Notes under the pieces: model-generated
Database searches by the model: none
Told to the model about the DNA's origin: nothing
The model's input: the letters and a program-made list of their open reading frames with translations, nothing else
Made by a program: the position numbers and the translations under genes
Source: Candidatus Heimdallarchaeota archaeon
GTDB taxonomy: Archaea; Asgardarchaeota; Wukongarchaeia; Wukongarchaeales; JBHIFL01
Assembly (NCBI GenBank): GCA_046761065.1
Contig: JBHIFL010000018.1
Location: 1-55,891 of the forward strand
Length of the DNA stretch: 55,891 nucleotides
Direction: 5' to 3'
In this document: positions 1 through 53,066 of the stretch, one piece after another
How the letters are laid out: each line of letters starts with the position of its first letter
How positions within the stretch are numbered: the first letter of the stretch is position 1

Positions 1-4
1 TTAT

Positions 5-1271
5 TAGCTTGTTGCCCTAAAAATTGAAATGCAAGAAGGCCTCCATGACATTCTTTTTCGATGATTTTAAGGAGAATGATGACCGAAACTGTTTTATACC
101 TTCTCGGGTTCTTCATTTTGGGTATACACTATGAAAAAACCCAAGAAGAATGCACATTCTAAGAAGCGGTTTCGGCCGAGATTGTCCAGCTTCATCAAAC
201 ACTTAAATTTTTCCAAGTATACCTCCCGCCTTCCCGGTCACACTCCCACCTCGTCTCGAGGGGGTTATCCCAAACTCGCTTACCTGAAGGCTCTCCTCCT
301 CAAAGGCTTCCTCCAACTCACTTACCGCGATCTGGAAGCCTTTCTCCGCCGCTATCCGAGCTATGCGACGGCCTGTGGGTTCCTCCGGGCCCAGATCCCC
401 CATTATTCTCGCTTTGCCAAATTCTTTACCCGCCTAGAGCCCTCTTTAGTCGATGATATTAGTATTGATGTCACCCGGAAGCTGATTCGGCGCCTCAGAA
501 TGCCTTGTAGGTTTCTAGGAGTCGATTCCACATCCTCCCGCGCTTACGCCAATTCCTTCACGAAAAAGGGGGATCCGGACGCAGAAGTGGGGAAATCCTC
601 GGTGAAGGGCTTTTTCTACGGCTACAAGATTCATCTGGTAGTAGACGGCCAAACCGACCTCCCAGTGGCCTTTGAAGTCACGGCAGGGAACGTGTACGAT
701 GGCCACCGCCTCCTGCCGTTATTACGAAAAGCTGTGAAAATCACCCGCAAGCGCCCAAAAGCCGTTATAGCGGACAAAGGCTATGATGCAGGGTACAACT
801 ATGTGGGAGTCGTGGAAGAGATGATGGCCGCGCCCGTGATCGCGATCCGAGGGCGGAGGCGGAGGGTAGTGGGCCGCCAAACGACCCTGGAGGATTTCTT
901 CCTGCAACGGCAAGGAAACCGCCGAAAGAAGAGGAGACGTCGCACCAAAACGCAAGAACAGCGGCTGAGGCAGAATCCTCCGATCGCGAGAGGGAGTGAG
1001 GAGTGGAAAGTCCTCGCCCGATTCCGAGCGAGTGCGGAGAGGGCGATCAGCCGGTTGAAGGCGATCTTTGGGTTGGAACGGCTAAGAGTGAGGGGATTAG
1101 CGCGGGTGAGAAAACATGTCGGATTGTGCATAATAGGACTCCTAGAGAGCGCCCTGTATCTGGCGAAGCGAGGGAGACCACGATTGGTGAGATCGTTCCC
1201 CTATATGGTGTGAGGGGCTCGATGGTCGAATTGAAATTGATTAGCTAGGATATGGCTTGGGCAACAAGCTA
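5..1271 (+). mobile_element. Complete insertion sequence (IS4 superfamily DDE; IS5/IS1182-like)
   Basis: Perfect 13-bp terminal inverted repeats TAGCTTGTTGCCC (5-17) and GGGCAACAAGCTA (1259-1271), flanked by TTAT at 1-4 and 1272-1275. An alternative reading is an 11-bp TIR with a TATTA duplication. Encloses one transposase ORF and is GC-richer than its flanks. Confidence 0.9.
131..1213 (+). CDS. DDE transposase (DDE_Tnp_1 type)
   Basis: GVDST, GYKIH, ADKGYD and RASAERAISRLK motifs; N-terminal helical domain (YRDLE..L...CGF...PHYS). Confidence 0.92.
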   Translation: MKKPKKNAHSKKRFRPRLSSFIKHLNFSKYTSRLPGHTPTSSRGGYPKLAYLKALLLKGFLQLTYRDLEAFLRRYPSYATACGFLRAQIPHYSRFAKFFTRLEPSLVDDISIDVTRKLIRRLRMPCRFLGVDSTSSRAYANSFTKKGDPDAEVGKSSVKGFFYGYKIHLVVDGQTDLPVAFEVTAGNVYDGHRLLPLLRKAVKITRKRPKAVIADKGYDAGYNYVGVVEEMMAAPVIAIRGRRRRVVGRQTTLEDFFLQRQGNRRKKRRRRTKTQEQRLRQNPPIARGSEEWKVLARFRASAERAISRLKAIFGLERLRVRGLARVRKHVGLCIIGLLESALYLAKRGRPRLVRSFPYMV

Positions 1272-1965
1272 TTATGGTGTTTTGAAAAATATGGTTATAA
1301 TTTGAAGATTCCTCAAGATAGATGCTCCACCTGGTATTAATTATAGCGTTTCCCATTATACTGTTGTTGTTTGCAGAAGATTGAAGCCAGATGCCAAAGT
1401 CTTGCATAGTTATAGCGTTGTCAGAGATGTTGTTTTTTGAAGAAGACTGGAGCACAGAAATACCAACCCAGTTGCCAGTGATGGTGTTCCCATGGATGTT
1501 GTTGTTTGTAGAGCCCTGGAGCACGAGGCCCAAATAGTTTCTAGTGATGATGTTGCCAGAGATGTTGTTGTTTGAAGAAGACTGGACATAGAGGCCACCT
1601 CACTTGACTTTCGTGTCATAGTATTTTATGGTGTTGTCAGAGATGGTGTTGTTTGAAGAATTGGAGAGGAGGATGTCATACTCCCACCCTATGACCGTGA
1701 GATTTTTGATGGTTACGTTGCTTCTGCCATCTAAGTAGATACCCGTACCTCTTCCTGTTCCCGGACCTTGTAACGTGTAGCCATTTCCGTCTATCACGAG
1801 GTTGTCCGCCGTCACTACGATTGGTTCGTCGAGGTTTTTGGTAAAGGTGTAGTCCGACGAGATTTCGAGGGTGGATCCTGCCCTCACTAGCGTTGGGGCT
1901 TGTGTTCCAAGCGTGACCGCGAACAGGCATGCAAGAATCGCCAAAAGACAAAAAGTTTTCTTCAA
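1272..1965 (-). pseudogene. Secreted right-handed beta-helix (NosD/PbH1 repeat) protein with an in-frame TGA, truncated by the IS
   Basis: Signal peptide, IDGNGYTLQG motif and repeated SSNNxIxGNxI units. ORFs 1600..1965 and 1201..1533 share one frame across TGA at 1600-1602 (KVK*GGLYVQSSSNNNISGN). The frame runs into the IS right end. Confidence 0.85.
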
Positions 1966-2455: not shown

Positions 2456-2734
2456 ATGACGACCTCTATTAAAGTAGAAGACTCAACGAAGAGAAAGATT
2501 GATAAAATCCAAGCCCAACTACTTTTACAATCGGGGAAGAAAGTTACTCAGCAGCAGCTTATTGAGTTAATGGCTGATTGGGCCACTCAAAACTTAGAAA
2601 CCCTCAAAAATATTCTTTTAGATAACCCAATCATACTAACTGACGAAGAAATTACGGCTTATAAGAAATATCGGATCTCAACAGGAATAAAGACCAACCC
2701 ACAGACCATCGACCAGATTCTTTACGGAGAATAG
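2456..2734 (+). CDS. Putative VapB-like antitoxin
   Basis: 92 aa with an N-terminal TTSIKV strand plus helices and a C-terminal IDQILYGE; directly upstream of a PIN gene; paralog of 21082..21354. Confidence 0.75.
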   Translation: MTTSIKVEDSTKRKIDKIQAQLLLQSGKKVTQQQLIELMADWATQNLETLKNILLDNPIILTDEEITAYKKYRISTGIKTNPQTIDQILYGE

Positions 2735-2740
2735 GATAGA

Positions 2741-3163
2741 ATGAGCATTCTCATTGATACAGGAGTCTGGATTGGGTATTTCAACATCGATGATTCACAG
2801 GCCGAACGAAGTAATGAAATCATAGAAGAAGTCCAACGAGGGAAATATGGGATCGCATGGACCACTACCTTCATCATCGATGAATTGTTTACGTTTTTAG
2901 TACGAGCGACTCGCAATCTCCAGTTAGCGATAAACGCGACTACGGTCGTGTTGGGAAAAAAAGAAGACGTTAAACCGTTTTTGCGGATCTATTGTATCAC
3001 CTACGAAGAGTGTTTGGAGGCTTTGAATTTAGCTGAGAGATATAAAGATCGACAAATGAATTTCACAGATTTAGTTTCAATAGTTGCATATAATAAACTG
3101 GGATTATCTTATATTGCTAGTTATGATAACCATTTTACAGGAATTCTTACAAAAGTTGACTAG
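2741..3163 (+). CDS. vapC: PIN-domain VapC toxin
   Basis: ILIDTG, DE, FTD and SYDNHF acidic PIN motifs. Confidence 0.88.
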   Translation: MSILIDTGVWIGYFNIDDSQAERSNEIIEEVQRGKYGIAWTTTFIIDELFTFLVRATRNLQLAINATTVVLGKKEDVKPFLRIYCITYEECLEALNLAERYKDRQMNFTDLVSIVAYNKLGLSYIASYDNHFTGILTKVD

Positions 3164-41825: not shown

Positions 41826-43535
41826 ATGGTGAAGATCATGAGAAAGCCAGTCAAAGCCCCGACGGGAACCACGTTAAGTTGTAAGGGTTGGGGGCAAGAG
41901 GCCGCCTTGCGGATGTTGATGAACAATCTGGATCCAGACGTGGCTAAGGATTGGGAAAAGCTCATCGTCTATGGTGGAACCGGTCAGGCTGCTAGAAATT
42001 GGGAATCCTTCGATGCCATTGTTAAAGCGTTAAAAGAATTAGAGAATGATGAAACCCTATTAATCCAATCAGGGAAGCCAGTTGGAATATTCAAGACCCA
42101 TCCTGATGCCCCCCGGGTTTTAATTGCCAACTCACTTATTGTACCGCACTGGGCTTCTTGGGAATACTTCCGAGAACTGCAAGAAAAAGGCCTTACGATG
42201 TATGGCCAAATGACAGCAGGTTCGTGGATTTATATTGGGACCCAAGGCATCCTCCAAGGTACTTATGAAACCCTCGCTGAACTTGCGGCCCAACATTTCG
42301 GTGAAAAAGAGGCCTTGCGGGGGCGTTTGGTCTTAACGGGCGGCTTGGGGGAAATGGGAGGTGCACAACCACTCGCCATCAAAATGAACGAGGGTGTTGG
42401 AATCATTGTGGAGATAGACGAATCCCACATCACTCGTCGCATTCGAACAAACTATCTGGATACCATGATGGAAGATCTTGATAAGGCGCTTGAAGCTGCA
42501 CTCGAAGCGAAAAGCAATAAAGAACCCTTAAGTATTGGGTTGTTGGGGAATACCGCCGAAATTCTGCCTGAAATCGTTCATCGGGTGAAAGCAGGTCAAA
42601 AAGAAATTCTCCCTGACATTGTTACAGATCAAACCTCGGCGCATGACGATCTTCAGTATTATCCAACCGGATTGACTTTTGAAGAAGCGAATAGGTTGCG
42701 TGAAGCGGACCCAGAAGAGTTTCAATGGCGTGCAAGGGAATCCATGGCGAAGCATGTCCAGGCAATGATTGATTTCAAAGAATTAGGGTCAATCTGTTTT
42801 GACTACGGCAACAATTTAAGACAGCAAGCAAAGGAGTATTGGCAGGATCAGAACGATCCACGGGGCGCTCAAGATATTCACAATTACTATCCTGGGTTTA
42901 TTCCAGCTTTTGTGCGCCCGCTTTTGTGCGAAGGGCGTGGTCCGTTTCGTTACGCCGCGCTTAGTGGCGAACCCGAAGATATTTTCAAATTAGATGAGGC
43001 GATTAAGCGGGAATTCGCGGATAATCCCCGTTTAGTTCGATGGATTACAAAGGCGCAAGAAATGGTTAAATTTCAAGGGCTTCCAAGTCGAGTGGTCTGG
43101 CTTGGGTACGGGGAACGCGCGCACTTTGGGAAAGTCATGAATGATATGGTACGCACGAGCGAATTGAAGGCGCCTCTCGTTATTGGACGAGATCACTTAG
43201 ATACAGGATCGGTGGCCTCTCCCAATCGTGAGACCGAAGGGATGAAGGATGGATCTGATGCAATTGCGGACTGGCCTATATTGAATGCTTTGCTGAATAC
43301 TGCGGCAGGAGCGACATGGGTGGCCGTCCACCAGGGCGGTGGGGTCGGAATCCCCTATGCTATCCATGCAGGAATGGTTGTTGTTGCCGATGGGACGAAA
43401 GAGGCCGAGGTACGCCTTGAGCGTGTCTTGACCACAGATCCGGGAAGTGGGATTGTGCGACACGCAGATGCAGGCTATGAGAAAGCTATCGCTATCGCAA
43501 AGAAAAAGGGAATCAAGATGCCTATGTTAAAGTAG
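41826..43535 (+). CDS. hutU: Urocanate hydratase
   Basis: [41 protein letters not shown] and GRDHLD motifs. Confidence 0.98.
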
Positions 43536-51512: not shown

Positions 51513-53066
51513 ATGGAATCTGTGGTGATTAATGGGGAATCTCTTTCTCTTGAAGAGATCATTGCTGTTGCGCGTCGTGGGGCACATGTTAATCTCACTC
51601 CTCGGGTAAAAGAACAAGTGGAGCAGGGACGAAAGGTCGTTCAGGAAATTCTTGAGAGTGGGAAGGTGGTCTATGGGATTAATACTGGGTTTGGAGAATT
51701 GGCTCGGGTGAAAATTCCAACAAATGAAACTGGTATCCTTCAGGAAAACATGATCCTCAGTCATTCAGCTGGAGTGGGACCTCCGCTGGATCCTGAAATT
51801 GTTAAAGCAACGATGCTCCTTCAGGTCAATTCTATTGCTAAAGGCCACACTGGTGCTAGGATAGTGATTTGTCAAACACTAATGGATATGCTCAACAATG
51901 GGGTTGTCCCAATTGTCCCAGCAAAGGGCTCAATTGGCGCAAGTGGTGATTTGGCACCTTTGGCACATATTGTCAGCGTCATGCTTGGGCATGGGGGAGC
52001 CCGAGTCGACGATGGAGCCTGTGTTAACGGAAAAACAGCTATGGATCGGGTAAAAATCCCCATCATCCGTCTAGAGGCGATGGAGGGCCTAGCACTAATT
52101 AACGGGACCCATATGATGACTGCCATCGGGAGTCTTGCCCTCTATGATGTTGAAAATCTTGTGAAAGCTGCAGAAATTGCAAGTATGATGAGCCTTGAAG
52201 CATTAAAGGGGACAGACACGGCGTTCGAAGAGAGAATCCATGCCCTTCGTCCCCACCCGGGGCAATTGGCTTGTGCGGAAAACTTACGAAAGCTCACACA
52301 GGCAAGCGAGAATCTCCAGAGCCACAAAGAATACGTCCCAGATGCACACGAGATCATTCAAGATAGTTACTCGTTGCGATGTATCCCTCAAGTGCATGGG
52401 GCTATTAGGGATGCGATAAGCTATGTTAAACGGGTAATCAAAACGGAACTCAACTCGGTGACGTGTAACCCTCTTATATTCCCAGAATCCTCTGTCAAAG
52501 TTTCCTTAGGCGGCAATTTTCACGGGCAACCAGTAGCATTGGCATTGGATGTGCTAGGCATCACCATAACGGAGCTTGGAAACATTTCAGAAAGACGGAT
52601 AAACCGCCTTTTAGATGCCCATCTGAGCAACGGGTTACCTCCTTTTCTGACAGAGAAAGCAGGCACCCATTCCGGCTACATGCTTGCTCAATATATCGCT
52701 GCAGCATTAGTATCGGAAAATAAAGTCTTAGCCACCCCAGCCAGTGTGGATTCTATACCTGTTTCGGCAAATACCGAGGACTACGTTTGTATGGGAATGC
52801 ACGCCGCCATGAAAGCAAGAACCATTATCGAGAACACAATGTGCATTATTGCTATCGAACTCTTATGCGCAGCACAAGCCCTTGATTTTCGTGCGCCCTT
52901 AAGGTTTGGGCGTGGAACGCAAAAAGCGTATGAAGTGATACGGCACGAAATCTCTCATCTTGAAGAAGACCGAGAAACCTACCGGGATATCAAGAAACTT
53001 GTTGAGATGATCCGATCAGGCACCATTGTTCGATTAGTGGAAGACATTGTAGGTCAGCTAAACTAA
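51513..53066 (+). CDS. hutH: Histidine ammonia-lyase
   Basis: VYGINTGFG, GASGDLAPL (MIO-forming ASG), INGT, QD.YSLRC.PQVHG, GNFHG and SERR motifs. Confidence 0.95.
   Translation: MESVVINGESLSLEEIIAVARRGAHVNLTPRVKEQVEQGRKVVQEILESGKVVYGINTGFGELARVKIPTNETGILQENMILSHSAGVGPPLDPEIVKATMLLQVNSIAKGHTGARIVICQTLMDMLNNGVVPIVPAKGSIGASGDLAPLAHIVSVMLGHGGARVDDGACVNGKTAMDRVKIPIIRLEAMEGLALINGTHMMTAIGSLALYDVENLVKAAEIASMMSLEALKGTDTAFEERIHALRPHPGQLACAENLRKLTQASENLQSHKEYVPDAHEIIQDSYSLRCIPQVHGAIRDAISYVKRVIKTELNSVTCNPLIFPESSVKVSLGGNFHGQPVALALDVLGITITELGNISERRINRLLDAHLSNGLPPFLTEKAGTHSGYMLAQYIAAALVSENKVLATPASVDSIPVSANTEDYVCMGMHAAMKARTIIENTMCIIAIELLCAAQALDFRAPLRFGRGTQKAYEVIRHEISHLEEDRETYRDIKKLVEMIRSGTIVRLVEDIVGQLN

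Follow-up and report, generated by a model that had tools for sequence, protein, structure and literature searches.

The transposase gene at the start of the window (the whole 55,891-nt stretch of DNA that was analysed) encodes the octapeptide QTTLEDFF, and the question raised by this locus is whether the peptide is a PIP box by which an insertion sequence (IS) docks on the sliding clamp PCNA of its host. The IS is ~1.27 kb long (window positions 1-1274, + strand), as delimited by its terminal inverted repeats and by the blastn end points of same-genome copies at 1271-1276. The left repeat (16 nt, 2-17, +) is 94% complementary to the right repeat (16 nt, 1259-1274, +), where the similarity to the copies on contigs C129, C25, and C58 ends, and a single ORF (131-1213, +) lies between the two, which is the structure expected of an IS. 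The left end of the IS is the contig start, the window opening within it, and other near-identical copies were likewise cut by contig ends when the same genome was searched using blastn. The element is multicopy: near-identical pieces were found at several contig ends (C129 at 97%, C35, and C58) and older copies at 78-88% on C45, C25, C8, and C182. The presence of near-identical copies alongside these older ones suggests, as far as sequence comparison goes, that the IS was recently active.

The ORF encodes a 360-aa DDE transposase (P0001) that was matched in Pfam to PF01609 (DDE_Tnp_1; 96 bits against a cut-off of 23) and, at the N-terminus, to PF05598 (DUF772; 33 bits). The top-ranked NCBIfam models were IS1182 (127.6 against a cut-off of 270) and IS5 (IS5_4, 92.3 against 140), and since all IS-family models (IS5_1-4 and IS1182) scored below their curated cut-offs, the transposase was filed as IS5/IS1182-like, unclassified, and as a member of neither named family. 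It has in common with the IS5 and IS1182 DDE transposases (DDE_Tnp_1, DUF772, DDE_Tnp_1_6) the domain architecture, the DDE triad, the R-x3-E-x6-K helix, and the terminal inverted repeats, but unlike most relatives, it has no Cys-rich insertion. The IS5a group presumably has the same DUF772 plus DDE_Tnp_1 architecture, as judged via Escherichia coli IS5. In an alignment of 94 homologues, the two catalytic Asp residues, D132 (524-526, +) and D215 in ADKGYD (773-775, +), were invariant, and the catalytic Glu, E303 in RASAERAISRLK (1037-1039, +), was conserved in at least 90% and lies within the usual R-x3-E-x6-K helix. The AF2 model built from this alignment reached a pLDDT of 91.7 and a pTM of 0.88, the nearest solved folds being Tn5 transposase (TMq 0.44-0.45) and piggyBac (0.46). 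A model built from a 13-sequence alignment had a pLDDT of 63, was too poor for judging disorder, and was superseded by the 94-sequence model.

The motif occupies residues 250-257 (878-901, +; codons CAA ACG ACC CTG GAG GAT TTC TTC), has the core R-Q-x-x-L-x-x-F, and agrees with the consensus Q-x-x-[LIM]-x-x-[FY]-[FY]. The sequence-only reading had placed QTTLEDFF at these positions, with RRRR and RRKKRRRR on either side and in the interior of the protein between the second catalytic Asp and the Glu helix, and this was borne out: the basic runs are residues 242-245 and 264-271, and the motif lies between D215 and E303. The surrounding loop (residues 241-270; 851-940, +) is basic in this subfamily and stands in place of the Cys-rich insertion of most relatives. 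In the 94-sequence AF2 model, low confidence was confined to the first ~10 residues and to this stretch (~241-270; block means of pLDDT 58-63), with the core above 90, and the motif is thus predicted to lie in a loop that is exposed and flexible and connects strand beta5 (PVIAIR) with the Glu helix, a place where this superfamily has variable insertions. A one-turn helix was modelled at residues 253-256, over L-E-D-F, in both the 13- and the 94-sequence models. The motif therefore has, in the model, the accessible disordered segment with a short turn that is looked for in a PIP box.

The strict pattern Qxx[LIM]xx[FY][FY] occurred 43 times in the ~997,000 residues of the long ORFs of the genome, which gives 0.016 expected chance matches per 360-aa protein and an estimate of roughly 0.7 per window-sized stretch, so one exact match alone is not significant. 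What exceeds chance, on sequence comparison, is the conservation of the motif. Homologues were collected by a word-indexed search, which returned 20, and by an exhaustive profile search, from which the best 150 of 2,940 were kept. Q250, L253, and F256 were invariant, and R249 nearly so, in a 13-sequence family alignment reaching down to ~41% identity, and the same three positions were invariant in all 23 family sequences covering the loop, a set in which one copy is metagenomic and another, from C45 of this genome, is diverged and broken (QTTLAEFC). Position 8 varied among the 21 distinct loop sequences (L in eight, F in seven, G in four, W in one, and C in the diverged in-genome copy), and the part under selection is therefore only Q-x-x-L-x-x-F; L or W at this position occurs in many accepted archaeal PIP boxes, whereas G and C are non-canonical. 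The Arg/Lys runs were confined to the closer relatives, and the flanks became neutral or acidic at 40-45% identity, a shift that can be followed through P0015, P0016, P0023, P0024, P0026, and P0030. In the five readable DNA copies, the codons of R249 (CGC/CGT), L253 (CTG/CTC/TTG), and F256 (TTC/TTT) vary synonymously, which argues for selection on the peptide and not on the DNA. The only selected feature of the loop, as far as the alignments show, is a short linear motif R-Q-x-[TS]-L-[DE]-x-F-[LFW], usually with a hydrophobic last residue, and the conservation of R-Q-x-[TS]-L-[DE]-x-F amid a diverging loop is the pattern expected of such a motif. The sequence-only reading had proposed conservation among homologous transposases as a check, and the core was kept in all homologues down to ~41% identity. 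Its picture of a canonical motif inside a basic insertion holds for the Q-x-x-L-x-x-F core only, the second F being variable and the basic flanks being a property of the closest relatives. Besides this genome, no relative above 35% identity was found in the species-representative genome collection; one close relative (86%) came from the metagenome scan. A close-family relative at 51% identity (QLTLDLFL) adjoins a TBP gene.

The host genome is a 234-contig metagenome assembled genome (MAG) of 4.4 Mb with a completeness of 91% and an estimated contamination of 8%. It contains one PCNA gene (PF00705 / PCNA_N match, C17:16061-16369), the closest named relatives of which are in Candidatus Bathyarchaeota MAGs, and a domain search of the genome gave no match to the C-terminal domain of DnaN. 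The host is an archaeon with PCNA, a Bathyarchaeia-like MAG. The contig of the PCNA gene also has, about 20 kb away from that gene, a remnant of the IS left end (90% over 64 nt). Several host proteins end in PIP boxes of their own: FEN1 in QVSLDSWF-A, a second FEN1-like protein in QVDLERWL-NES, and others in QKTLDAFF, QASLDKFF-GR, and QKTLGEFL-KRD. QTTLEDFF fits their consensus, Q-x-[ST]-L-[DE]-x-[FW]-[FL]. The MAG has two FEN1-like (C5:43459-44562 and C48:11452-12510) and two RNase HII-like genes (C8 and C54), and these duplicates either are paralogues or reflect the contamination, estimated at 8%.

Modelling of the peptide with the host PCNA, also proposed earlier, was done by co-folding the PCNA (30-row alignment) with transposase residues 238-282 (13-row alignment). 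The segment was placed in the PIP pocket with a score of 0.86 (0.86, 0.86, and 0.85 in three runs), compared with 0.02 for the best of three controls. Of 80 solved complexes, 58 reach the pass mark, as do 2 of 110 mismatched pairs; these counts hold only roughly here since our own alignments were supplied. The runs agreed in at least 72% of contacts, and the partner pLDDT was at least 51. In the modelled interface, transposase residues 246-257 face PCNA residues 42, 45-49, 127-131, 228-229, and 245-252, which we take to be the hydrophobic pocket, the interdomain connecting loop, and the C-terminal tail, i.e., the canonical PIP site. The pass may reflect the model's memory of many solved PIP-PCNA complexes, and because few peptide complexes have been solved as often, it is to be read as PIP-like likeness in context and not as binding. 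The PCNA-docking interpretation of the sequence-only reading is supported in part, the two computational checks that it proposed having had positive outcomes.

Among the 94 aligned homologues, a Cys-rich insertion (at least four Cys) at the loop site was present in 51, an internal Q-x-x-[LIMV]-x-x-[FYW] in 21, and, among the first 25 residues, a motif of the QxxLFxF type in 10; the internal motif occurred together with a Cys-rich linker in two and with the N-terminal motif in one. The relatives named as bacterial (Dehalococcoidales and a deltaproteobacterial MAG; ~30% identity) have the Cys-rich insertion and no internal motif. The N-terminal motif, Q-x-x-L-F-x-[FW]-[EK] at residues ~5-12, resembles the bacterial beta-clamp motif QxxLF, and nearly all of its carriers (P0031, P0033, P0056, P0092, P0114, P0117, P0129, P0135, P0158, and P0162; also L108) have the Cys-rich insertion. 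The gene contexts of P0031, P0193, P0003, and P0010 contained no domain-diagnostic neighbours for the host.

A further group of relatives, ~520 aa long, has Q-x-x-L-x-x-F-G, the Gln of which was paired with Q250 by hhalign. In its members (L241-L245; Thermoplasmatota G187, G134, G221, and G249), the N-terminus has a long extension, and the insertion is helical and closes with G-Q-T-[FV]-L-T-x-F-G. Of 301 Thermoplasmatota genomes sampled, 7 contained the group, with the motif GQTFLTRFG or GQTVLTRFG, and one member, with the source name Thermoplasmatota, adjoins diphthamide synthase and NurA genes. G is the commonest residue at position 8, and the motif comes after a helical-looking, not a disordered, region. 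From these alignments, the group may represent another archaeal family, besides the one studied here, that has a clamp-type motif in its interior. No copy of the 520-aa type was found in the three named archaeal MAGs searched.

The reading that we prefer, with a probability of roughly 0.6, is that the motif is a functional PCNA-docking peptide (PIP box) that links the transposase to loaded clamps. The conservation of the core, the selection on the peptide, the loop's disorder, a host with PCNA, the likeness to the host's PIP boxes, the co-fold, the contrast with bacterial relatives, and the precedent of the IS200 and IS1634 transposases count for it. Against it count position 8, which is not conserved (four relatives have G there, and the diverged in-genome copy has C), the internal location near the active site, most archaeal PIP boxes being terminal, the 520-aa group with its mostly G at position 8 and its helical-looking context, and the 8% estimated contamination of the MAG. 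Actual binding to PCNA is what we infer, as is any influence it has on targeting or on the rate of transposition. In such docking, the Gln would enter the Q-pocket made by the PCNA C-terminal tail, the Leu and the Phe residue or residues would sit on a one-turn helix and fill the hydrophobic pocket beneath the interdomain connecting loop, and the flanking Arg/Lys runs of this subfamily might add electrostatic affinity for PCNA or DNA. Through docking on the clamp, the transposase or transpososome would arrive at replication forks, or at repair or gap-filling sites, and the host's repair synthesis could be drawn to the product of transposition. An extension that we consider a long shot is that an archaeal IS5/IS1182-like clade (the 360-aa and the Thermoplasmatota 520-aa transposases) swapped an ancestral Cys-rich insertion beside the active site for an internal PIP-box loop and that PCNA, beyond tethering, is a required cofactor of transpososome assembly or activation, in which case transposition would need a clamp loaded at a fork or repair gap.

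The main alternative, which we hold to be less likely but possible, is that the Q-x-x-L-x-x-F turn is intrinsic to the transposase, for instance as a hydrophobic anchor that packs, within the synaptic complex, against the other subunit in trans or against the DNA of the transposon end, or that it docks another host factor. The loop stands in for an insertion domain adjoining the active site, and Tn5 is among the closest solved folds. In Tn5-type transposases, the corresponding insertion helps handle the DNA ends. The basic flanks of this subfamily would suit DNA binding, the second aromatic residue is dispensable, and the aligned motif of the 520-aa group, mostly with G at position 8, follows predicted helices, all of which would fit an intrinsic role. 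However, AF2 leaves the motif unpacked on the monomer core (pLDDT 58-63), the motif agrees with the host PIP consensus residue class by residue class, the co-fold puts it in the PIP pocket far above the controls, and it is absent from the relatives known as bacterial.

Very unlikely, in our estimate, is descent of the motif from bacterial ancestors as a generic sliding-clamp peptide (beta-clamp type, QxxLF) with an incidental PIP likeness. The beta and PCNA motifs do overlap, peptides cross-bind between the domains (PMC4549789), and about 10 of the 94 relatives have the QxxLFxF-type motif at the N-terminus, but the named bacterial relatives have the Cys-rich insertion where the internal motif would be, the internal and the N-terminal motif hardly ever occur together (in 1 of 94), the spacing of the internal motif is that of a PIP box (Q-2-L-2-F), and it occurs in hosts with archaeal markers. 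A functionless chance match in a low-complexity loop, for which the 0.016 expected per such protein and roughly 0.7 per window would allow, is strongly disfavoured by the conservation of the motif core, i.e., three invariant positions in 23 sequences, with turnover of synonymous codons and fully diverged flanks, and is hardly credible.

Returning to the PIP-box reading, transposases that bind sliding clamps are known from several systems. In pull-downs, the PCNA of Methanosarcina barkeri is bound by a C-terminal peptide of this species' IS200 transposase that contains a Q-x-x-[LI]-x-x-F-F motif (Gomez et al. 2014, PMC3971601), and also by a peptide of its IS1634 transposase, which in addition cross-binds a bacterial clamp (Diaz-Maldonado et al. 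2015, PMC4549789). The present case is alike in the archaeal IS transposase, the Q-x-x-[LI]-x-x-F-F-type motif, the PCNA host, and the proposed coupling to the replisome, and differs in the enzyme, which here is an IS5/IS1182-like DDE transposase and there a Y1 HUH enzyme (IS200) and an IS1634 transposase. The IS200 peptide is C-terminal and was assayed, whereas the present motif is embedded in the catalytic domain between the second Asp and the Glu and is known from sequence and model. The beta clamp is bound by peptides from nine bacterial IS families (PMC3971601), and the bacterial beta-clamp-binding transposases (IS5a, IS30, IS66, IS91, ISL3, IS1380, Tn7 TnsE, and Tn3 TnpA; PMC3971601, PMC11417375) likewise have a short, weakly conserved clamp peptide, but the clamp proposed here is PCNA and not beta, the spacing is that of a PIP box, and the named bacterial relatives are without the internal motif. 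The Pogo/Tigger transposases and LINE-1 ORF2p also have PIP boxes, that of ORF2p being internal, between two enzymatic domains, and needed for retrotransposition (PMC5371812). The common feature is a PIP box in a mobile-element enzyme, internal in ORF2p, and since the proteins and hosts are unrelated, the likeness is one of convergence and not of homology.

No paper on this transposase family or on an IS5/IS1182-like archaeal PIP box was found in the open-access literature. What is new is the IS group, the host lineage, and the position of the motif inside the catalytic domain, where it replaces the Cys-rich insertion. The idea is less new than the sequence-only reading implied, as PIP peptides of archaeal transposases and the internal PIP box of ORF2p were already known, and the gain is incremental because the principle of the clamp-binding transposase is established. 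If the motif binds PCNA, clamp-coupled transposition would reach another IS group and the Bathyarchaeia and, by alignment, elements of Thermoplasmatota, and the docking site would be internal and near the active site, not terminal. The family would offer a natural comparison between relatives with archaeal markers and a PIP-type loop, named bacterial relatives with the Cys-rich insertion, and some others with an N-terminal beta-type motif, and this contrast could reveal how a mobile element adjusts to the replication apparatus of hosts from a new domain.

The remainder of the window was surveyed for markers of the host domain. Ten other genes of the window had metabolic Pfam matches, none domain-diagnostic, and no tRNA was found in the window. 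Urocanase was tried as an archaeal marker for the contig (C18) and was uninformative, its best matches (61-68% identity) being to proteins of many bacterial phyla and of several archaeal lineages. The urocanase and an aromatic amino acid (histidine-type) ammonia-lyase are encoded at 41826-43535 and 51513-53066 (+), which is consistent with a pathway of histidine utilisation.

Next to the IS, a gene for a secreted right-handed beta-helix or NosD-like protein (1204-1965, -) is broken into at least two frame-shifted pieces (1600-1965 and 1201-1533). The piece at 1600-1965 has a signal-peptide-like start, the gene has Pfam matches to Beta_helix and NosD, and its final open frame reaches into the right end of the IS. 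The IS was probably inserted into this gene, which would now be a pseudogene. Just beyond the IS, at 2456-3163 (+), a 92-aa ORF with no Pfam match is followed after 6 nt by a 140-aa PIN-domain ORF (PF01850, E = 1.3e-08), and the two look like a toxin-antitoxin pair of the VapBC type.
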